Under the pieces are notes generated by a model. That model was given only the letters and a program-made list of their open reading frames with translations, searched no databases and was not told the DNA's origin. Shown piece by piece: positions 323 through 21,024 of a stretch of DNA of 64,000 bases. The stretch's first letter is position 1. Every line of letters begins with the position of its first letter. Source of the stretch: Escherichia coli (GTDB lineage Bacteria > Pseudomonadota > Gammaproteobacteria > Enterobacterales > Enterobacteriaceae); assembly GCA_032372955.1 (NCBI GenBank), contig GCA_032372955.1_4725.1; one strand, written 5' to 3'. The translations under genes were made by a program, and so were the position numbers.

Positions 323-2916
323 ATGGCCATCATGCTCGATATCGTGAGTTTCGATAGACAGCTCGCAGAACTTCCTTTTACGCCGATTTTGTTGAATGAT
401 TACGATACAAAAGTCGTCGAAGAGAAGAAGAAATTAAACAGTTTTATTACCCGTGTTTACTCCAGCGATACGTTGGATATCACGCCACAATGTGGTTGTG
501 GTTTCTACAATCGTGGTGAGCTACTCGGCACGGTGTGTCCAAACTGTAAAACGGTTGTAACCTACCCAGCAGAACAAGAGATTCGTTCGACGGTTTGGGC
601 GCGTGTTCCTGAAGGAATCGATGCGTTCATTAACCCGTTGGTCCATCTCGTGCTGGCAAGCGAGTTGAATATCAAAAGCTTTGAAACGATGACGTGGCTA
701 ATTGATGCCAGTTACCGTCCAAATGTAAAACGACCCATCGAACTCAAGAACTATCTGGAGCAGCAATTCGATGTATTCGGGATACGGCGCGGTGTAAATA
801 GCTTTATACAGAACTTCGATCGCATCATGGAGATCTTGTATAAAGGACCTACGTTACGTGGACCGAAGAACACGGAGAAAGTTGACACACTACGAGAATT
901 CATCCGTATCCATCGTGATAAGTTCTTCAGTCAGTATATCAGCTTTCCTGCGGCCATGATGTTCGTTATCGAGAATACGCCAACCGGTCGTTATGCGGAT
1001 AGCAAAATGGAAGGTGCGATCGATGCTATCGGTACGTTGAACAGTATCTATCATCCAACAACACCTTTGAGCGCCAGAAAGAAAGAAAACTGGATGGCGA
1101 AAGTGCAATTGAAGCTGCTGCAATACCATGCGGCGATTTTCGATGAGTTCATCGGTAAGAAGAAAGGTATTACACGTAAAAACATATTAGGTACATTACA
1201 TCCATTCACCACGCGTACCGTAATCAGTTCGATAACAGCGAACCATCGTTATTATCATCTGCATTTCCCATACGCGCCATTTACTTTAACCAATAAAGAA
1301 CATATCCAATCCAAGTTATTCCATCGTGGTTATTCGCCAAGAGCAGCACGTGCGTTCGTTGCGGAACATGTTCGCAATTATCATCCGATGATGAGCGAGC
1401 TGCATGATGAGCTTATTGCTGATACACCGTTCGATGGGATTGTGTGTGGTTTTGTTCGAAACCCATCACTTGACCGAAGCAGTAACCAATGTCTTGAAAT
1501 CACCAAGGTTAAACGCGATCCGCAGGATAACACCATCGGGTTAAGCGTGATGATCTTGAAAGGGTCGTTAGGCCCAGTAACGCAGAAATGTTGTTACGAG
1601 GAACTCCCTAATGCGGGAACCTACTTAGAGCCTTGTCCACCAACCACGTCTGGGAACAGAGTGTGGGGCTGAACTAATCATTCAGGTACGGTAAAAGCGG
1701 CAAGGATTGGGGAATCCGCAGCGAAGTCTCCAGAACGGAGATGTGCTCAACGACTATCGCTTACGGGCGTTAGGGCCAAGCGGTGTGGGAAACCACCGGT
1801 CATTTGACCGCCGAAATGGGAGCCCCGACCAGATAATGCTGAGGGTGAAAGATATAGTCTCTTCTTACGTGAAAGACGTAAGCAGTACCTTAGGTACGGG
1901 TATGGAGTAGCGAACCATACTGAAGATTTAGATAATGCAGATTTCAGTTTTTTCAATTAAATCAATAACTTACGATGATTTATTGATACCGTCGGGATCT
2001 GGTTTCTGGTAACAGGAACATAGTTAAAACTCTCTAATTGACGGGAAGTTTCTGTAATCGGACTACACACCAACTCATCGTGGTGACACAGATGAGGGCC
2101 AGCGTAATGAACTGGGTACGGTAAAAGAGGTAGGACGGGAATAATCCGCAGCGAAGCATCTCAACAAGAACGTTCACCTGATTATAGGAATCCACGAATG
2201 TTCGTTAAGATGTGTGCTCACAGACTATCGAAAGACGCGATGTCGAGTAGAGTAGGCTCTGTTAAACACAGACCCAAACGGGAGACTCCTCGCAACGAGG
2301 ATGAAGATATAGTCGATAAACAGCGACGGGGATGCTTAATCATAGGCCCTGCCTTCCGAAAGGAAGAGCTTGGATTCCGTGAATTGCTGGGAAGGGCTAA
2401 GGCCGCTACGCCTCGTAAGAGGAACCGATAAGGTAGAAACAAGGTAGCGGATGTACGCGGCTTCAATGACAATCCCTTCGGGGATGCCTACCGTACATGA
2501 CAATGTTCGATCAGCAGCGAAGCTCCGTTTAGGAGAACGTTCAACGAATACGTGGTCTCAAGCGAGATCCAGCGCGGAAGTCCTACGTTCCATTTGGAAT
2601 ATGGATAAGATGTATTCTGGACATTCCGGTAACACCGGAAGCTGCAGGTAAAGCTGCGGGTATGAGGTAGCGACTCATGCTGAACACTACGATGAACAAC
2701 CATATCGTCCCAGACATTTGGACTGCGAAACATTTCGGGCGTTTTCGACCCGAACTCGGTATGATGGATAATAACGTACCTTTTAAGGTATCTAAGAAAT
2801 GTGAACATCAGTCACCGGTTATTTCTACCATTGACTGTTGGTTCAACGAATTCGTGGAGGGCGATGACGTAGAACCTTATCTTGACGAAATAGAAGCAAC
2901 TAACAACCATTGCTAA
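323..2916 (+). CDS. RNA polymerase beta-prime-like subunit, N-terminal part; proposed exons 323-1565, 1932-1944, 2324-2336, 2692-2916 (about 497 aa)
   Basis: Zn-finger CGCGFYNRGELLGTVCPNC and RKNILGTLHPFTTRTVI resemble bacterial beta-prime; proposed spliced product reads ILKGYNADFDGDAMNNHIVPD, matching the universal YNADFDGDQMAVHVP catalytic loop; RBS AGGAG before ATG 323. Confidence 0.55.
1566..1931 (+). ncRNA. group I intron 1 (putative self-splicing, no ORF)
   Basis: Q-like AATCCGCAGC 1713-1722, R-like CTCAACGACTATCG 1746-1759, S-like AAGATATAGTC 1849-1859 (R/S complementary GACTAT/ATAGTC); exon ends in U1565, intron ends in G1931. Confidence 0.55.
1945..2323 (+). ncRNA. group I intron 2 (putative)
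   Basis: Second copy of GGTACGGTAAAAG and AATCCGCAGC (2143-2152), R-like GCTCACAGACTATCG 2215-2230, S-like AAGATATAGTC 2304-2314; boundaries inferred from reading-frame continuity; 3' splice site unusually close to S element. Confidence 0.4.
2337..2691 (+). ncRNA. group I intron 3 (putative)
   Basis: R-like GTTCAACGAATACG and complementary S-like AAGATGTATTC; 3' module GTATGAGGTAGCGACTCATGCTGAA mirrors intron 1 end; TAGGCCC near 5' end as in intron 1; ends in G2691. Confidence 0.4.
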
Positions 2917-2931
2917 AGGAGGACGCCTGTA

Positions 2932-18872: not shown

Positions 18873-19017
18873 TGTCGCCGACTTTTACTCCGGCAGTGGA
18901 GATATATTAACACCTACATAACCTAAGAGAAGGGATTCCCGATGCTATCATGGCGATAGTAAATTCCAACGGAATTGGTAAACCGTATGATAAAACCATT
19001 TAAATCGGAAAGTAATA

Positions 19018-21024
19018 ATGATTACAACACAGACAACCACCACGAAACGTCGTGTGAGGGCACGCGAGCTTATGCATTGGCCGGTTGATGAGGTGTTCGA
19101 ATGGGCACAGCCTAATGACCGTGTGTATATCGAGATGGACGATGGCGTTCATGAATTGCGTGCACGACGCATTTTCTTTAGTTACATGCACTGGTCTGTG
19201 CATCGCATGTATCCTGAGACCCCACTAACAAAAGAGAACCTGGTTGATAAACGCAAGTTCACAGCGGGTTCATCGGTTGCGTTGCAAAGCGCAGCGTATC
19301 GTCAATGCATGTATGCTTATCCACAAGAGAATCGTGAGGTTCTCTGGAAAGCATTGTTCGATATGTTTAACAATGTGTATAACTTCTTTACGTATGCGTT
19401 GGAGGAATACGTAACAACGATTTGCGCGGACGATTTTTATCAGATTACCGTACACCCCGAAGTTAAGAAAATCATCGCCGAAGCGGAACCCACCCGCGAA
19501 GGTATCGAAAGCGCATACAAGAAACTGACAAAGGTACTGAGCACCGATAAAACGTTACACGCAAACCCTATTGCACGTGCGGTAAGAACCGAACACGTTT
19601 CGATCGGACAGGTGCTGCAGTGTATTGGGATGCGTGGATTCTTGACTGATATTAACTCCGAGATATTCCGTGACCCAGTGATGCGGTCATACGCAGCTGG
19701 TTTGATCTCTCTTCCAGACAGCTTGAAAGAAAGTCGTTCTGCGGCAAAATCGTTGCTGTTCAACAAAGAGCAGATTAAAAAGTCTGAATATTTCGGTCGT
19801 GAACTTCAGATAGCGACAGCGGTTGTACAACGACTCCATCCTGGTGATTGTGGTAGTAAAGAGACCATCCCGATGCCAATCCGTGATGAGACCGACCTGC
19901 GTGGCTTCCACGGTCGATTCATTATTCGTGACGACGGTTCGTTGGTAGCGATACAACCACACATGAAAGAATTGATCGGCACCACAGTGCGCATGCGCTC
20001 TGTTAACTATTGTCATCATCCCGATCCTGCTGGGGTATGTACGACGTGTTACGGTGAATTAAGTCATAACTTCGCATTGACTGATAATGTCGGCGACGGT
20101 GCAGCGCGTACCTGTTCGCAACAGGTAACGCAGAACATTCTTTCTACCAAACACCACGATGGTTCGTCAACGGTATCCACAGCACCAATCCCACCGGAAT
20201 ATCAACATATCCTTCGCTACAGCCAGAACATGAACGACATCAAACTCGCACGTGAGCTGAAAGGTAAACACGTGTTGATTAAGATGAAGTTAGGTCTTGC
20301 GAACATGTTGTACGACGTAGCGGAAGCGGAAGAAATCAGTTCGCTGATACCGCAACGTCTGTTTAACATGACGCTTTGCGATATGGAGATTTACGACAGG
20401 AAAGATGAAAGCTATCGTAAGCTCAAAGTCAATTTCGATTTCTGTGGTCGTCCTGTTGTACCGAGTAAAGCGTTTATCCGGTATCTCAAACGCCATAGCT
20501 GGGAAGTGACGTCTGACGGGATTGTGATTTTCGACTTGAAACATTGGGACAATTCACGTACGTTATTCCAGATGCCGTTAATCCACAAAAACATGATGGA
20601 ATACGCAAAAGAAATCGAACGTGAATTCAAATTCGGGAAAGGTTCTTTCAGTGCCGGATTCCTCTCGGAAGACGAAGCAACACCGGAAGAAGTTGCAAAC
20701 GTGCTGTACTATTGGCATCGCCTGTGTGCTCAGCGTCTGCGAATGAACCTTTCGCATCTCGACGTTATTCTCTACGCCAGCATGATTCGTTCACCGCACA
20801 CGAAAGATTATCGCATGCCGAAACAGGGAACAACACGATACTTCAGTACCTTCAAGAAGAACATGAACATGCGCTCCTTGAGTATGAAGTTCGCTCACCA
20901 AGAGCAGCTGGATGCGTTCCAAAACCCGAACAGTTATATCCCAACCATGAAGCCGGATCATCCGATCGACTACATGCTGTTACCGCGTAAAGAACCTAAA
21001 CCGGAGGATGTAATCACGTTATGA
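19018..21024 (+). CDS. RNA polymerase beta-prime-like subunit, C-terminal part (tentative)
   Basis: QCIGMRGFLTDINSEIFRDPVMRSYAAGL resembles beta-prime GMRGLMAKP...NFREGL region preceding the bridge helix; weak overall. Confidence 0.45.
   Translation: MITTQTTTTKRRVRARELMHWPVDEVFEWAQPNDRVYIEMDDGVHELRARRIFFSYMHWSVHRMYPETPLTKENLVDKRKFTAGSSVALQSAAYRQCMYAYPQENREVLWKALFDMFNNVYNFFTYALEEYVTTICADDFYQITVHPEVKKIIAEAEPTREGIESAYKKLTKVLSTDKTLHANPIARAVRTEHVSIGQVLQCIGMRGFLTDINSEIFRDPVMRSYAAGLISLPDSLKESRSAAKSLLFNKEQIKKSEYFGRELQIATAVVQRLHPGDCGSKETIPMPIRDETDLRGFHGRFIIRDDGSLVAIQPHMKELIGTTVRMRSVNYCHHPDPAGVCTTCYGELSHNFALTDNVGDGAARTCSQQVTQNILSTKHHDGSSTVSTAPIPPEYQHILRYSQNMNDIKLARELKGKHVLIKMKLGLANMLYDVAEAEEISSLIPQRLFNMTLCDMEIYDRKDESYRKLKVNFDFCGRPVVPSKAFIRYLKRHSWEVTSDGIVIFDLKHWDNSRTLFQMPLIHKNMMEYAKEIEREFKFGKGSFSAGFLSEDEATPEEVANVLYYWHRLCAQRLRMNLSHLDVILYASMIRSPHTKDYRMPKQGTTRYFSTFKKNMNMRSLSMKFAHQEQLDAFQNPNSYIPTMKPDHPIDYMLLPRKEPKPEDVITL

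Follow-up and report, generated by a model that had tools for sequence, protein, structure and literature searches.

Each jumbo phage of the phiKZ family carries two split RNA polymerases (RNAPs) with similar fragment patterns, one packaged in the virion (vRNAP) and one non-virion enzyme (nvRNAP) (PMC7618050; PMC7598289). In phiKZ, the nvRNAP consists of gp55, gp68, gp71-73, gp74, and gp123 (PDB 7OGP, 8QUE), of which gp68 is the fifth, sigma-like subunit involved in promoter recognition (PMC7618050). Introns with endonucleases were predicted in phiKZ as gp56, gp72, and gp179 in the 2002 genome paper, as that work is cited in PMC10914365. A closer relative of the DNA studied here, vB_EcoM_Goslar (NC_048170), is a 237-kb nucleus-forming jumbo phage of the genus Goslarvirus. 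We analyzed a stretch of 64,000 nucleotides (nt) filed under Escherichia coli (assembly GCA_032372955.1, contig GCA_032372955.1_4725.1), hereafter the window, in which a first-pass annotation had read 3 open reading frames (ORFs) as fragments of RNAP large subunits. It is highly probable that the window encodes 4 of the 5 nvRNAP subunits of a Goslar-like nucleus-forming jumbo phage and that the gene for the N-terminal part of beta-prime (beta-prime N) is cut by 3 group I introns; neither the gp68 homologue nor the 3 introns had been part of the first-pass annotation. The polymerase genes are as follows.

323..2916, plus strand: nvRNAP beta-prime N-terminal subunit, interrupted, phiKZ gp55 homologue
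9815..11401, plus strand: fifth nvRNAP subunit, sigma-like, phiKZ gp68 homologue (7ogp_B/9rjs_B, blastp)
14777..16945, plus strand: nvRNAP beta C-terminal subunit, phiKZ gp71-73 homologue (PHROG 3295, 7ogp_C, blastp)
19018..21024, plus strand: nvRNAP beta-prime C-terminal subunit, phiKZ gp74 homologue (PHROG 3015, 7ogp_D, blastp)

The 3 ORFs read earlier as large-subunit fragments were all placed in RNAP families, with ORF 323-1672 matching PHROG 2987, "RNA polymerase beta subunit," at 2e-113 (380.6 bits), ORF 14612-16945 matching PHROG 3295 at 1.2e-180, and ORF 19018-21024 matching PHROG 3015 at 4.7e-170. Their best PDB matches were the 7OGP chains of phiKZ gp55 (7ogp_A, 1.4e-59), gp71-73 (7ogp_C, 9.1e-86), and gp74 (7ogp_D, 1.3e-86), respectively. 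The comparison with the phiKZ and AR9 subunit sets that had been proposed put the AR9 nvRNAP chains second for the 3 subunits and bacterial beta and beta-prime far behind, with many bacterial beta-prime chains among the weak matches of ORF 19018-21024. The motifs that had drawn attention to these ORFs were located: beta-prime N has the zinc finger CGCG...CPNC together with RKNILGTLHPFTTRTVIS, the beta C-terminal subunit (beta C) has RAAMFGGHLSQ and GDKFVVTDIMEDDEMPVDQWG, and the beta-prime C-terminal subunit (beta-prime C) has GMRGFLTD...RSYAAGL. The last of these had been called the weaker assignment; the identity was right, and the match is a strong one. Residues 475-656 of ORF 14612-16945 aligned with residues 1063-1241 of E. 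coli beta, and the ORF is therefore the C-terminal half of beta; in blastp against phiKZ it matched gp71 (2.7e-42) and gp73 (9.6e-40) collinearly. Cellular RNAP remnants were considered as the identity of the ORFs and rejected.

A fourth polymerase gene was identified between these, where residues 68-563 of ORF 9680-11401 matched the PHIKZ068 chains 7ogp_B/9rjs_B over nearly the full length (~5e-28) and phiKZ gp68 in blastp (5e-33). The true start of this gene is likely Met46 at 9815, with the ribosome-binding site (RBS) AAGAGG, as in Goslar gp175; for beta C, the most likely start is Met56 (14777; RBS AGGAAG), as in Goslar gp171. The 55-codon extension of the mechanical ORF upstream of beta C (14612-14776) overlaps 14392-14757 on the minus strand, annotated as gp172 in Goslar, and is probably untranslated as part of beta C. 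Judged by homology, then, 4 of the 5 nvRNAP genes are present in the window, namely, beta-prime N, the gp68 homologue, beta C, and beta-prime C. The polymerase itself is ordinary, being a non-virion enzyme already annotated in a known phage species.

The ORFs could instead encode the virion-packaged enzyme that serves early genes, as the 2 split polymerases of these phages resemble each other in fragment pattern and virion and non-virion enzymes are not separable by PHROG names. We consider this extremely improbable. The best structural matches are all chains of the phiKZ non-virion structure 7OGP, the nvRNAP-specific gp68 homologue lies between the genes, and the gene order is that of phiKZ gp55-gp75. 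Further, beta-prime C matched phiKZ gp74 at 1.8e-95 and had no blastp match to the virion subunit gp80 at E<=1e-3. The assignment to nvRNAP rests on the 7OGP matches together with this preference for gp74 over gp80.

The check by Rpb1/Rpb2-type domain models, suggested in the first-pass annotation, gave opposite results in the 2 databases, as nothing in Pfam scored above threshold and PHROG profiles placed all 3 ORFs. In Pfam, only Rpb2_6 appeared among the 3 RNAP ORFs, scoring 16.3 bits (cut-off, 23.4). We rejected Pfam as a test because these RNAP families are too divergent for it; taken alone, it would have led to the split-polymerase finding being dismissed wrongly. The Pfam RNA_pol_Rpb1/Rpb2 models miss all 4 polymerase subunits, and PHROGs and PDB sequence searches find all of them easily. 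Pipelines that use Pfam only would therefore call these polymerase genes hypothetical.

The reading of ORF 323-1672 as a beta-prime N fragment held, but not its reading as a complete gene, as the ORF consists of an exon followed by read-through into an intron. The 449-amino-acid (aa) read-through product matches its family, whose profile has 478 positions, only to residue 414, and it lacks the NADFDGD motif. By tblastn with intron-free homologues (RAY, Eowyn, and 201phi2-1), NADF mapped to 1934-1945, and the 65 C-terminal residues mapped to 2692-2889. In the alignment with Goslar, 368 bases of the window (1564-1931) have no counterpart, and Goslar reads AAAGGTTATAATGCC across the gap. The junction of exons 1 and 2 is fixed by this comparison, because Goslar has AAA GGT TAT AAT GCC GAC TTC without an intron. 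Only one model, with 4 exons, complies with the group I rules (a U preceding the 5' splice site and a G ending the intron) while also restoring the protein; it is listed below.

323..1565, plus strand: exon 1, 1243 nt, ending ...VMILKG and the T of the Tyr415 codon
1566..1931, plus strand: intron 1, 366 nt, no ORF; site a, splitting the Tyr415 codon (T|AT)
1932..1944, plus strand: micro-exon 2, 13 nt, AT AAT GCA GAT TT, coding (Y)NAD(F)
1945..2323, plus strand: intron 2, 379 nt, no ORF; site c, inside the Phe419 codon (TT|C)
2324..2336, plus strand: micro-exon 3, 13 nt, C GAC GGG GAT GCT, coding (F)DGDA
2337..2691, plus strand: intron 3, 355 nt, no ORF; site d, after the Ala423 codon (GCT|ATG)
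2692..2916, plus strand: exon 4, 225 nt, MNNHIVPD...NNHC, stop included

Joined at the modeled junctions 1565^1932, 1944^2324, and 2336^2692, the coding sequence is in frame and encodes 497 aa containing ...VMILKGYNADFDGDAMNNHIVPD..., with LKGYNADFDGDAMNNH produced by splicing in silico and aligning residue for residue with the intron-free homologues and phiKZ gp55. The score against PHROG 2987 rose from 380.6 to 445.6 bits (4e-133) and the coverage from 414 to 474 of 478 positions. Residues 21-476 of the spliced protein matched 7ogp_A at 1.1e-74, with lkgyNADFDGDamn aligned to lkapNADFDGDqln. Micro-exon 3 codes for 2 of the 3 catalytic aspartates, and micro-exon 2 differs from Goslar by synonymous changes alone (GCA/GCC and GAT/GAC). 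Exon 4, which equals the "hypothetical protein" gp185 of Goslar, matched phiKZ gp56.1 in blastp at 2.4e-5. The beta-prime N fragment, which in phiKZ-type nvRNAPs has a zinc finger and a double-psi barrel with NADFDGD, thus has this motif only after removal of 3 introns, and, judged from its reading frames, the gene as written in DNA cannot code for an active subunit. The tryptic peptide predicted across all 3 junctions is GYNADFDGDAMNNHIVPDIWTAK. Inteins were rejected, as the interrupting sequences do not code for protein and contain stops in every frame.

In the Goslar record (5021-8309), gp247, annotated as RNAP beta subunit, ends in NADFSFFN*, one Intron_gpI is marked, and gp185 is hypothetical. 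By the model given here, the Goslar gene would have 2 introns (sites c and d), with an HNH gene inside the first.

Scans of viral and metagenome contigs yielded 11 loci with the same exon 1 protein (99-100% identity), in which the spacing from exon 1 to exon 4 is 382, 739, 1128-1132, 1413, or 1827 nt. The window and these 11 relatives show 5 configurations at 4 insertion sites within ~25 nt. The sites are listed first, followed by the configurations, in which loci other than the window and Goslar carry our own numbers.

Site a: interrupts the Tyr415 codon
Site b: follows the Ala417 codon
Site c: interrupts the Phe419 codon
Site d: follows the Ala423 codon
Introns at a, c, and d: the window, L009, L010, L011, L015, and L017
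Introns at c (with HNH gene) and d: Goslar
Introns at b and d: L008
Intron at b only: L012, L013, and L014
Intron at a (with ORF) only: L016

Across the 5 configurations, each junction proposed for the window is found somewhere as uninterrupted coding DNA. L016, without introns at sites c and d, reads GAT TTC GAC GGG GAC GCG ATG AAC, and the intron-less alleles of L016 and L012-L014 share GAC GGN GAC GCG/GCA ATG. Differences between genomes in the micro-exons are synonymous only. Alleles with the site-d intron carry GCT, with U at position -1, except L008 (GCC), and alleles without it have GCG or GCA. In L008, the P1/P2 region (5601-5630) is also unlike that of the window, with compensatory changes.

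Goslar intron 2 is the same intron as in the window plus a 1065-bp insert with the HNH endonuclease gp186 (HNH_3+NUMOD1). Intron 1 of L016 harbors an ORF of 323 aa, HNH_3/I-HmuI-NUMOD-like with Pfam scores just under the cut-offs, which has 27% identity to Goslar gp186. No ORF, and hence no intron-encoded endonuclease, was found inside the 3 introns of the window, which are best read, from this comparison, as ORF-less derivatives. The site-b intron (5249-5598 in L008 and at the same place in L012-L014) has a body 72% identical to intron 3, and its 3'-proximal 31 nt correspond to intron 1 positions 332-362, being identical in L008 and ~90% identical in L012-L014. This mosaic suggests recombination between introns at neighboring sites.

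At gathering thresholds, Rfam found nothing in the whole window. In permissive mode, a 1.6-kb search with RF00028 (gathering score 50) matched intron 1 at 1545-1881 (30.4 bits, E 1.8e-5), intron 2 at 1996-2323 (44 bits, E 1.6e-9), and part of intron 3 at 2375-2579 (17.6 bits, E 0.13), and intron 2 is 96.8% identical to the Goslar feature annotated as Intron_gpI. The paired elements of group I introns could be placed in all 3. The U.G pairs of P1 at the splice sites are U1565.G1572, U1944.G1995, and U2336.G2345, the terminal intron bases are G1931, G2323, and G2691, and P10 to the following exon comprises 4, 6, and 4 bp in introns 1, 2, and 3, respectively. The P7 pairing GACUAU/AUAGUC is shared by introns 1 and 2, and intron 3 has GAAUAC/GUAUUC. 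Intron 2 has a P1 of 8 bp and one contiguous guide, CCGUCG-GGAUCUG (1989-2001), that pairs with CGACGG in exon 3 as well as with CAGAUUU in exon 2. In neighboring introns, P1 and P10 occupy non-overlapping micro-exon nucleotides, so the pairing scheme would force no order of removal, which suggests that the order may not matter.

Covariation was analyzed in 7 sequences comprising intron 3 and the site-b introns. RNAalifold gave 90 pairs, 35 of them with compensatory changes; with the P7 pseudoknot included, 37 of 94 pairs were changed on both sides, a number reached by 0 of 500 shuffles. The cells of this alignment were paired at 99.1%, versus 35-44% with slid partners. The RNA fold of the intron 3/site-b family is under selection, as indicated by these compensatory base-pair changes. 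Minimum free energy (MFE) z-scores were -1.34, -2.65, and -3.04 for introns 1, 2, and 3, respectively. We also considered the introns as simple duplicates of each other and rejected this, as their MAFFT alignment was poor outside the 3' ends of introns 1 and 3.

Intron 1 has 70-74% identity, over parts amounting to at most half of its length, to introns or intron-like stretches of other phages, including a fragment of a PhiPA3 gene with similarity to phiKZ gp071, as well as stretches without annotation in Bacillus phages and phiKZ. The stretch 1747-1925 is 70-71% identical to DNA at or near DNA polymerase/HNH genes of the unrelated E. coli phages Av-05, 18-1-2, and TH18, and the similarity hints at intron exchange between phage families with a common host.

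Several points weigh against the reading of an nvRNAP whose beta-prime N gene is restored by splicing. The case for splicing is made from DNA sequence, and all 3 RF00028 scores lie below the gathering score of 50. In a long-read transcriptome of phiKZ, the predicted introns of gp56, gp72, and gp179 yielded no spliced reads under the conditions used (PMC10914365), although the joined gp55/gp56.1 sequence is present in the solved phiKZ enzyme. The MFE z-score of intron 1 (-1.34) is indistinguishable from shuffles, and RNAalifold on its 6 variants (>90% identical) gave 5 compensatory pairs only, though these variants are too little diverged for covariation and the long-range pairs are untrustworthy. 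The site-d intron of L008 has C at -1, an unusual base at this position for a functional group I intron. Lastly, no N-terminal part of beta was found, as the first-pass annotation had also stated, with tblastn of phiKZ gp123 giving nothing in the window with E below ~5, and the completeness of the enzyme is taken from Goslar. There, the beta N homologue (39951-41621, 4e-49) sits ~65 kb beyond the Goslar stretch that matches the window (roughly 107-171 kb), and beta N is accordingly expected, by analogy, to be encoded elsewhere in the genome of this phage. The absence reflects the limit of the window and therefore does not count against membership in the nvRNAP.

The low RF00028 scores and the missing spliced reads in phiKZ would also fit ORF 323-1672 and ORF 2677-2916 being separate, complete genes, with the intron-like relics left unspliced and beta-prime split once more as protein. 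GenBank and RefSeq likewise keep Goslar gp247 (NADFSFFN*) and gp185 apart, with a single Intron_gpI feature. Left unspliced, no product would contain NADFDGD, the universally conserved metal-binding loop, and the polymerase would be inactive because the motif is absent from every product. In addition, the two 13-nt micro-exons are conserved apart from synonymous changes, the intron-less alleles join the pieces in one frame, the compensatory changes indicate selection on the RNA fold, and the solved phiKZ subunit is a gp55+gp56.1 fusion. Separate genes are, on this evidence, very improbable.

A further possibility is that some introns, likeliest 1 or 3, are non-autonomous and need a neighbor, a protein of the phage or its host, or removal in a set order, with frequent exon skipping that may regulate the polymerase level. 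The weak thermodynamic and covariation results for intron 1, the partial Rfam match of intron 3, and the very short 13-nt exons speak for it, and group I exon skipping was reportedly described by Landthaler and Shub in 1999 in the three-intron orf142 of phage Twort. Against it, relatives carry the introns singly or in different sets (a in L016, b in L012-L014, and c with d in Goslar), and each intron must splice without the others because it is found alone or in other combinations; the neighboring P1 and P10 elements also use separate micro-exon nucleotides. We regard non-autonomous introns as unlikely.

In the proposed explanation, namely, a spliced Goslar-like nvRNAP, the window would encode a non-virion, rifampicin-type-independent multisubunit RNAP. 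By analogy with the solved phiKZ enzyme, its 4 beta and beta-prime fragments would form a two-barrel catalytic core without alpha or omega, and the gp68-like subunit would stay bound and recognize promoters. Homology further suggests that the enzyme transcribes middle and late phage genes. Three ORF-less introns within 27 nt of coding sequence would split the Y-NADFDGD-A codons over 4 exons, and the pre-mRNA would be expected to self-splice 3 times because each intron has the P1 U.G pair, P10, a P7/P3 core, and a terminal G. The product would be the 497-aa protein with the Mg-binding aspartate triad. The introns themselves would be mobile elements, of which relatives carry HNH-bearing versions and other subsets at the 4 sites. 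We infer splicing, enzyme activity, promoter class, and endonuclease specificity of this system from sequence.

The first-pass view of a phiKZ-like jumbo phage with a split transcription apparatus agrees with the wider context. Goslar has 97.2% DNA identity over the beta C ORF and is collinear with the window over at least the first 37.7 kb, the extent compared, at 92-98% identity with few indels. By nucleotide identity (~96-98%), the phage of the window is assigned to the same species as Goslar, and no exact twin of the window was present among the retrieved sequences. The GC content of the window is even (41-50%). In local blastp against the phiKZ segment gp54-gp80, the gene order was 1:1 with phiKZ gp55-gp75, as listed below.

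Beta-prime N: phiKZ gp55
6786-7928: phiKZ gp65 (SbcD-like)
7912-8745: phiKZ gp66
8819-9610: phiKZ gp67
9815-11401: phiKZ gp68
11403-12989: phiKZ gp69
13046-14326: phiKZ gp70
Beta C: phiKZ gp71 and gp73
Beta-prime C: phiKZ gp74
21021-22595: phiKZ gp75, helicase

ORFs 11403-12989 and 13046-14326 were rejected as polymerase subunits, having 0 matches to solved structures and being homologues of phiKZ gp69 and gp70. A search for further introns, tRNAs, and RNAP genes elsewhere in the window found none. Two stretches have no Goslar counterpart. The first (34286-35001) alters the N-terminal part of a 3'-5' exoribonuclease-like ORF (34295-35620), which has 441 aa versus 409 aa in Goslar, and the second (36416-37079) contains ORF 36435-37037 (200 aa), for which Pfam and PHROG were both blank. 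The thymidylate synthase ORF (38643-39662, 339 aa; PHROG 160 at 7e-120) is continuous and intron-free; its classic intron-bearing counterpart is the T4 td gene.

In the literature searched, we found no account of the Goslar array, the micro-exons, or the polymorphism among insertion sites, and the array appears undescribed, though of a known kind. The published Goslar annotation cuts the catalytic subunit before the active-site aspartates, and cloning or modeling from it would give a dead enzyme; the added value here is a corrected gene model backed by a natural polymorphic series. It is possible, if somewhat doubtful, that the ~25 nt encoding the catalytic loop of beta-prime N are a contested landing pad in Goslar-like phages and that the triple ORF-less array protects the polymerase gene from the endonucleases of co-infecting relatives, as a defense or competition trait. 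At least 4 sites and 2 or more intron lineages, some with HNH endonucleases, would be competing there, and protection would follow because every target site is broken up by introns. If true, the array would act like PhiPA3 gp210 against phiKZ and be more than selfish DNA. The nucleus-like compartment, in which transcription is uncoupled from translation, may let so dense an array splice. The 12 near-identical genomes are a ready-made system for studying intron and endonuclease competition over one target, and the same series could show how adjacent ribozymes handle 13-nt exons and whether phages whose sites are occupied by introns are immune when competing with other phages.

Compared with known systems, the window has the subunit set and split points of the phiKZ nvRNAP, and the gene order is alike from chimallin through the gp75 helicase, with 24-32% identity between the subunits (E 5e-33 to 1.8e-95). 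The phiKZ beta-prime N gene is also interrupted at NADFDGD, by the HNH-bearing intron gp56, but it has one intron at another position, after Asn (AAT|GCT), whereas the window has 3 ORF-less introns. Conversely, phiKZ beta C is split by the intron gp72 into gp71 and gp73, whereas beta C of the window is uninterrupted; by this comparison of gene sequences, the intron load shifts between polymerase genes among family members. Checked by eye, the interruption lies after Asn in phiKZ (9186-10600) and after Ala two codons earlier in Xanthomonas phage LucasX (2740-3160). At its 3' end, the phiKZ intron resembles the Goslar-type introns. In a spread sample from 307 phage records, beta-prime N matches stopped at residues 416-428 in ~23 of 60, which points to the NADFDGD motif as a possible family-wide hot spot for introns.

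Goslar has the 4 polymerase genes (gp247/gp186/gp185, gp175, gp171, and gp165) collinear with the window, but it lacks intron 1, which the window has, and its intron 2 has the 1065-bp HNH insert, which the window lacks. The AR9 nvRNAP (PDB 7S00/7S01) has split beta and beta-prime and an attached promoter-specificity subunit, as here, but is much more distant (E 1e-7 to 3e-17), and the uracil-containing promoters are those of AR9 (PMC7618050), with nothing here to suggest them. Phage genes with 2 or 3 group I introns are known (PMC11878797; PMC12908238), and PhiPA3 gains a competitive advantage over phiKZ from an intron endonuclease in one of its polymerase genes (PMC11620839, PMC12908238). The window introns resemble mobile group I introns with I-HmuI-type HNH endonucleases (SPO1/SP82 and Bastille DNA polymerase, PhiPA3 gp210 in a vRNAP gene, and Twort orf142) in occupying the most conserved codons of an essential enzyme, in occurring in ORF-bearing and ORF-less versions, and in their presence/absence polymorphism among close relatives. 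Unlike those known cases, 3 introns lie within 27 nt around two 13-nt exons, and 4 insertion sites fall in ~25 nt within one species.

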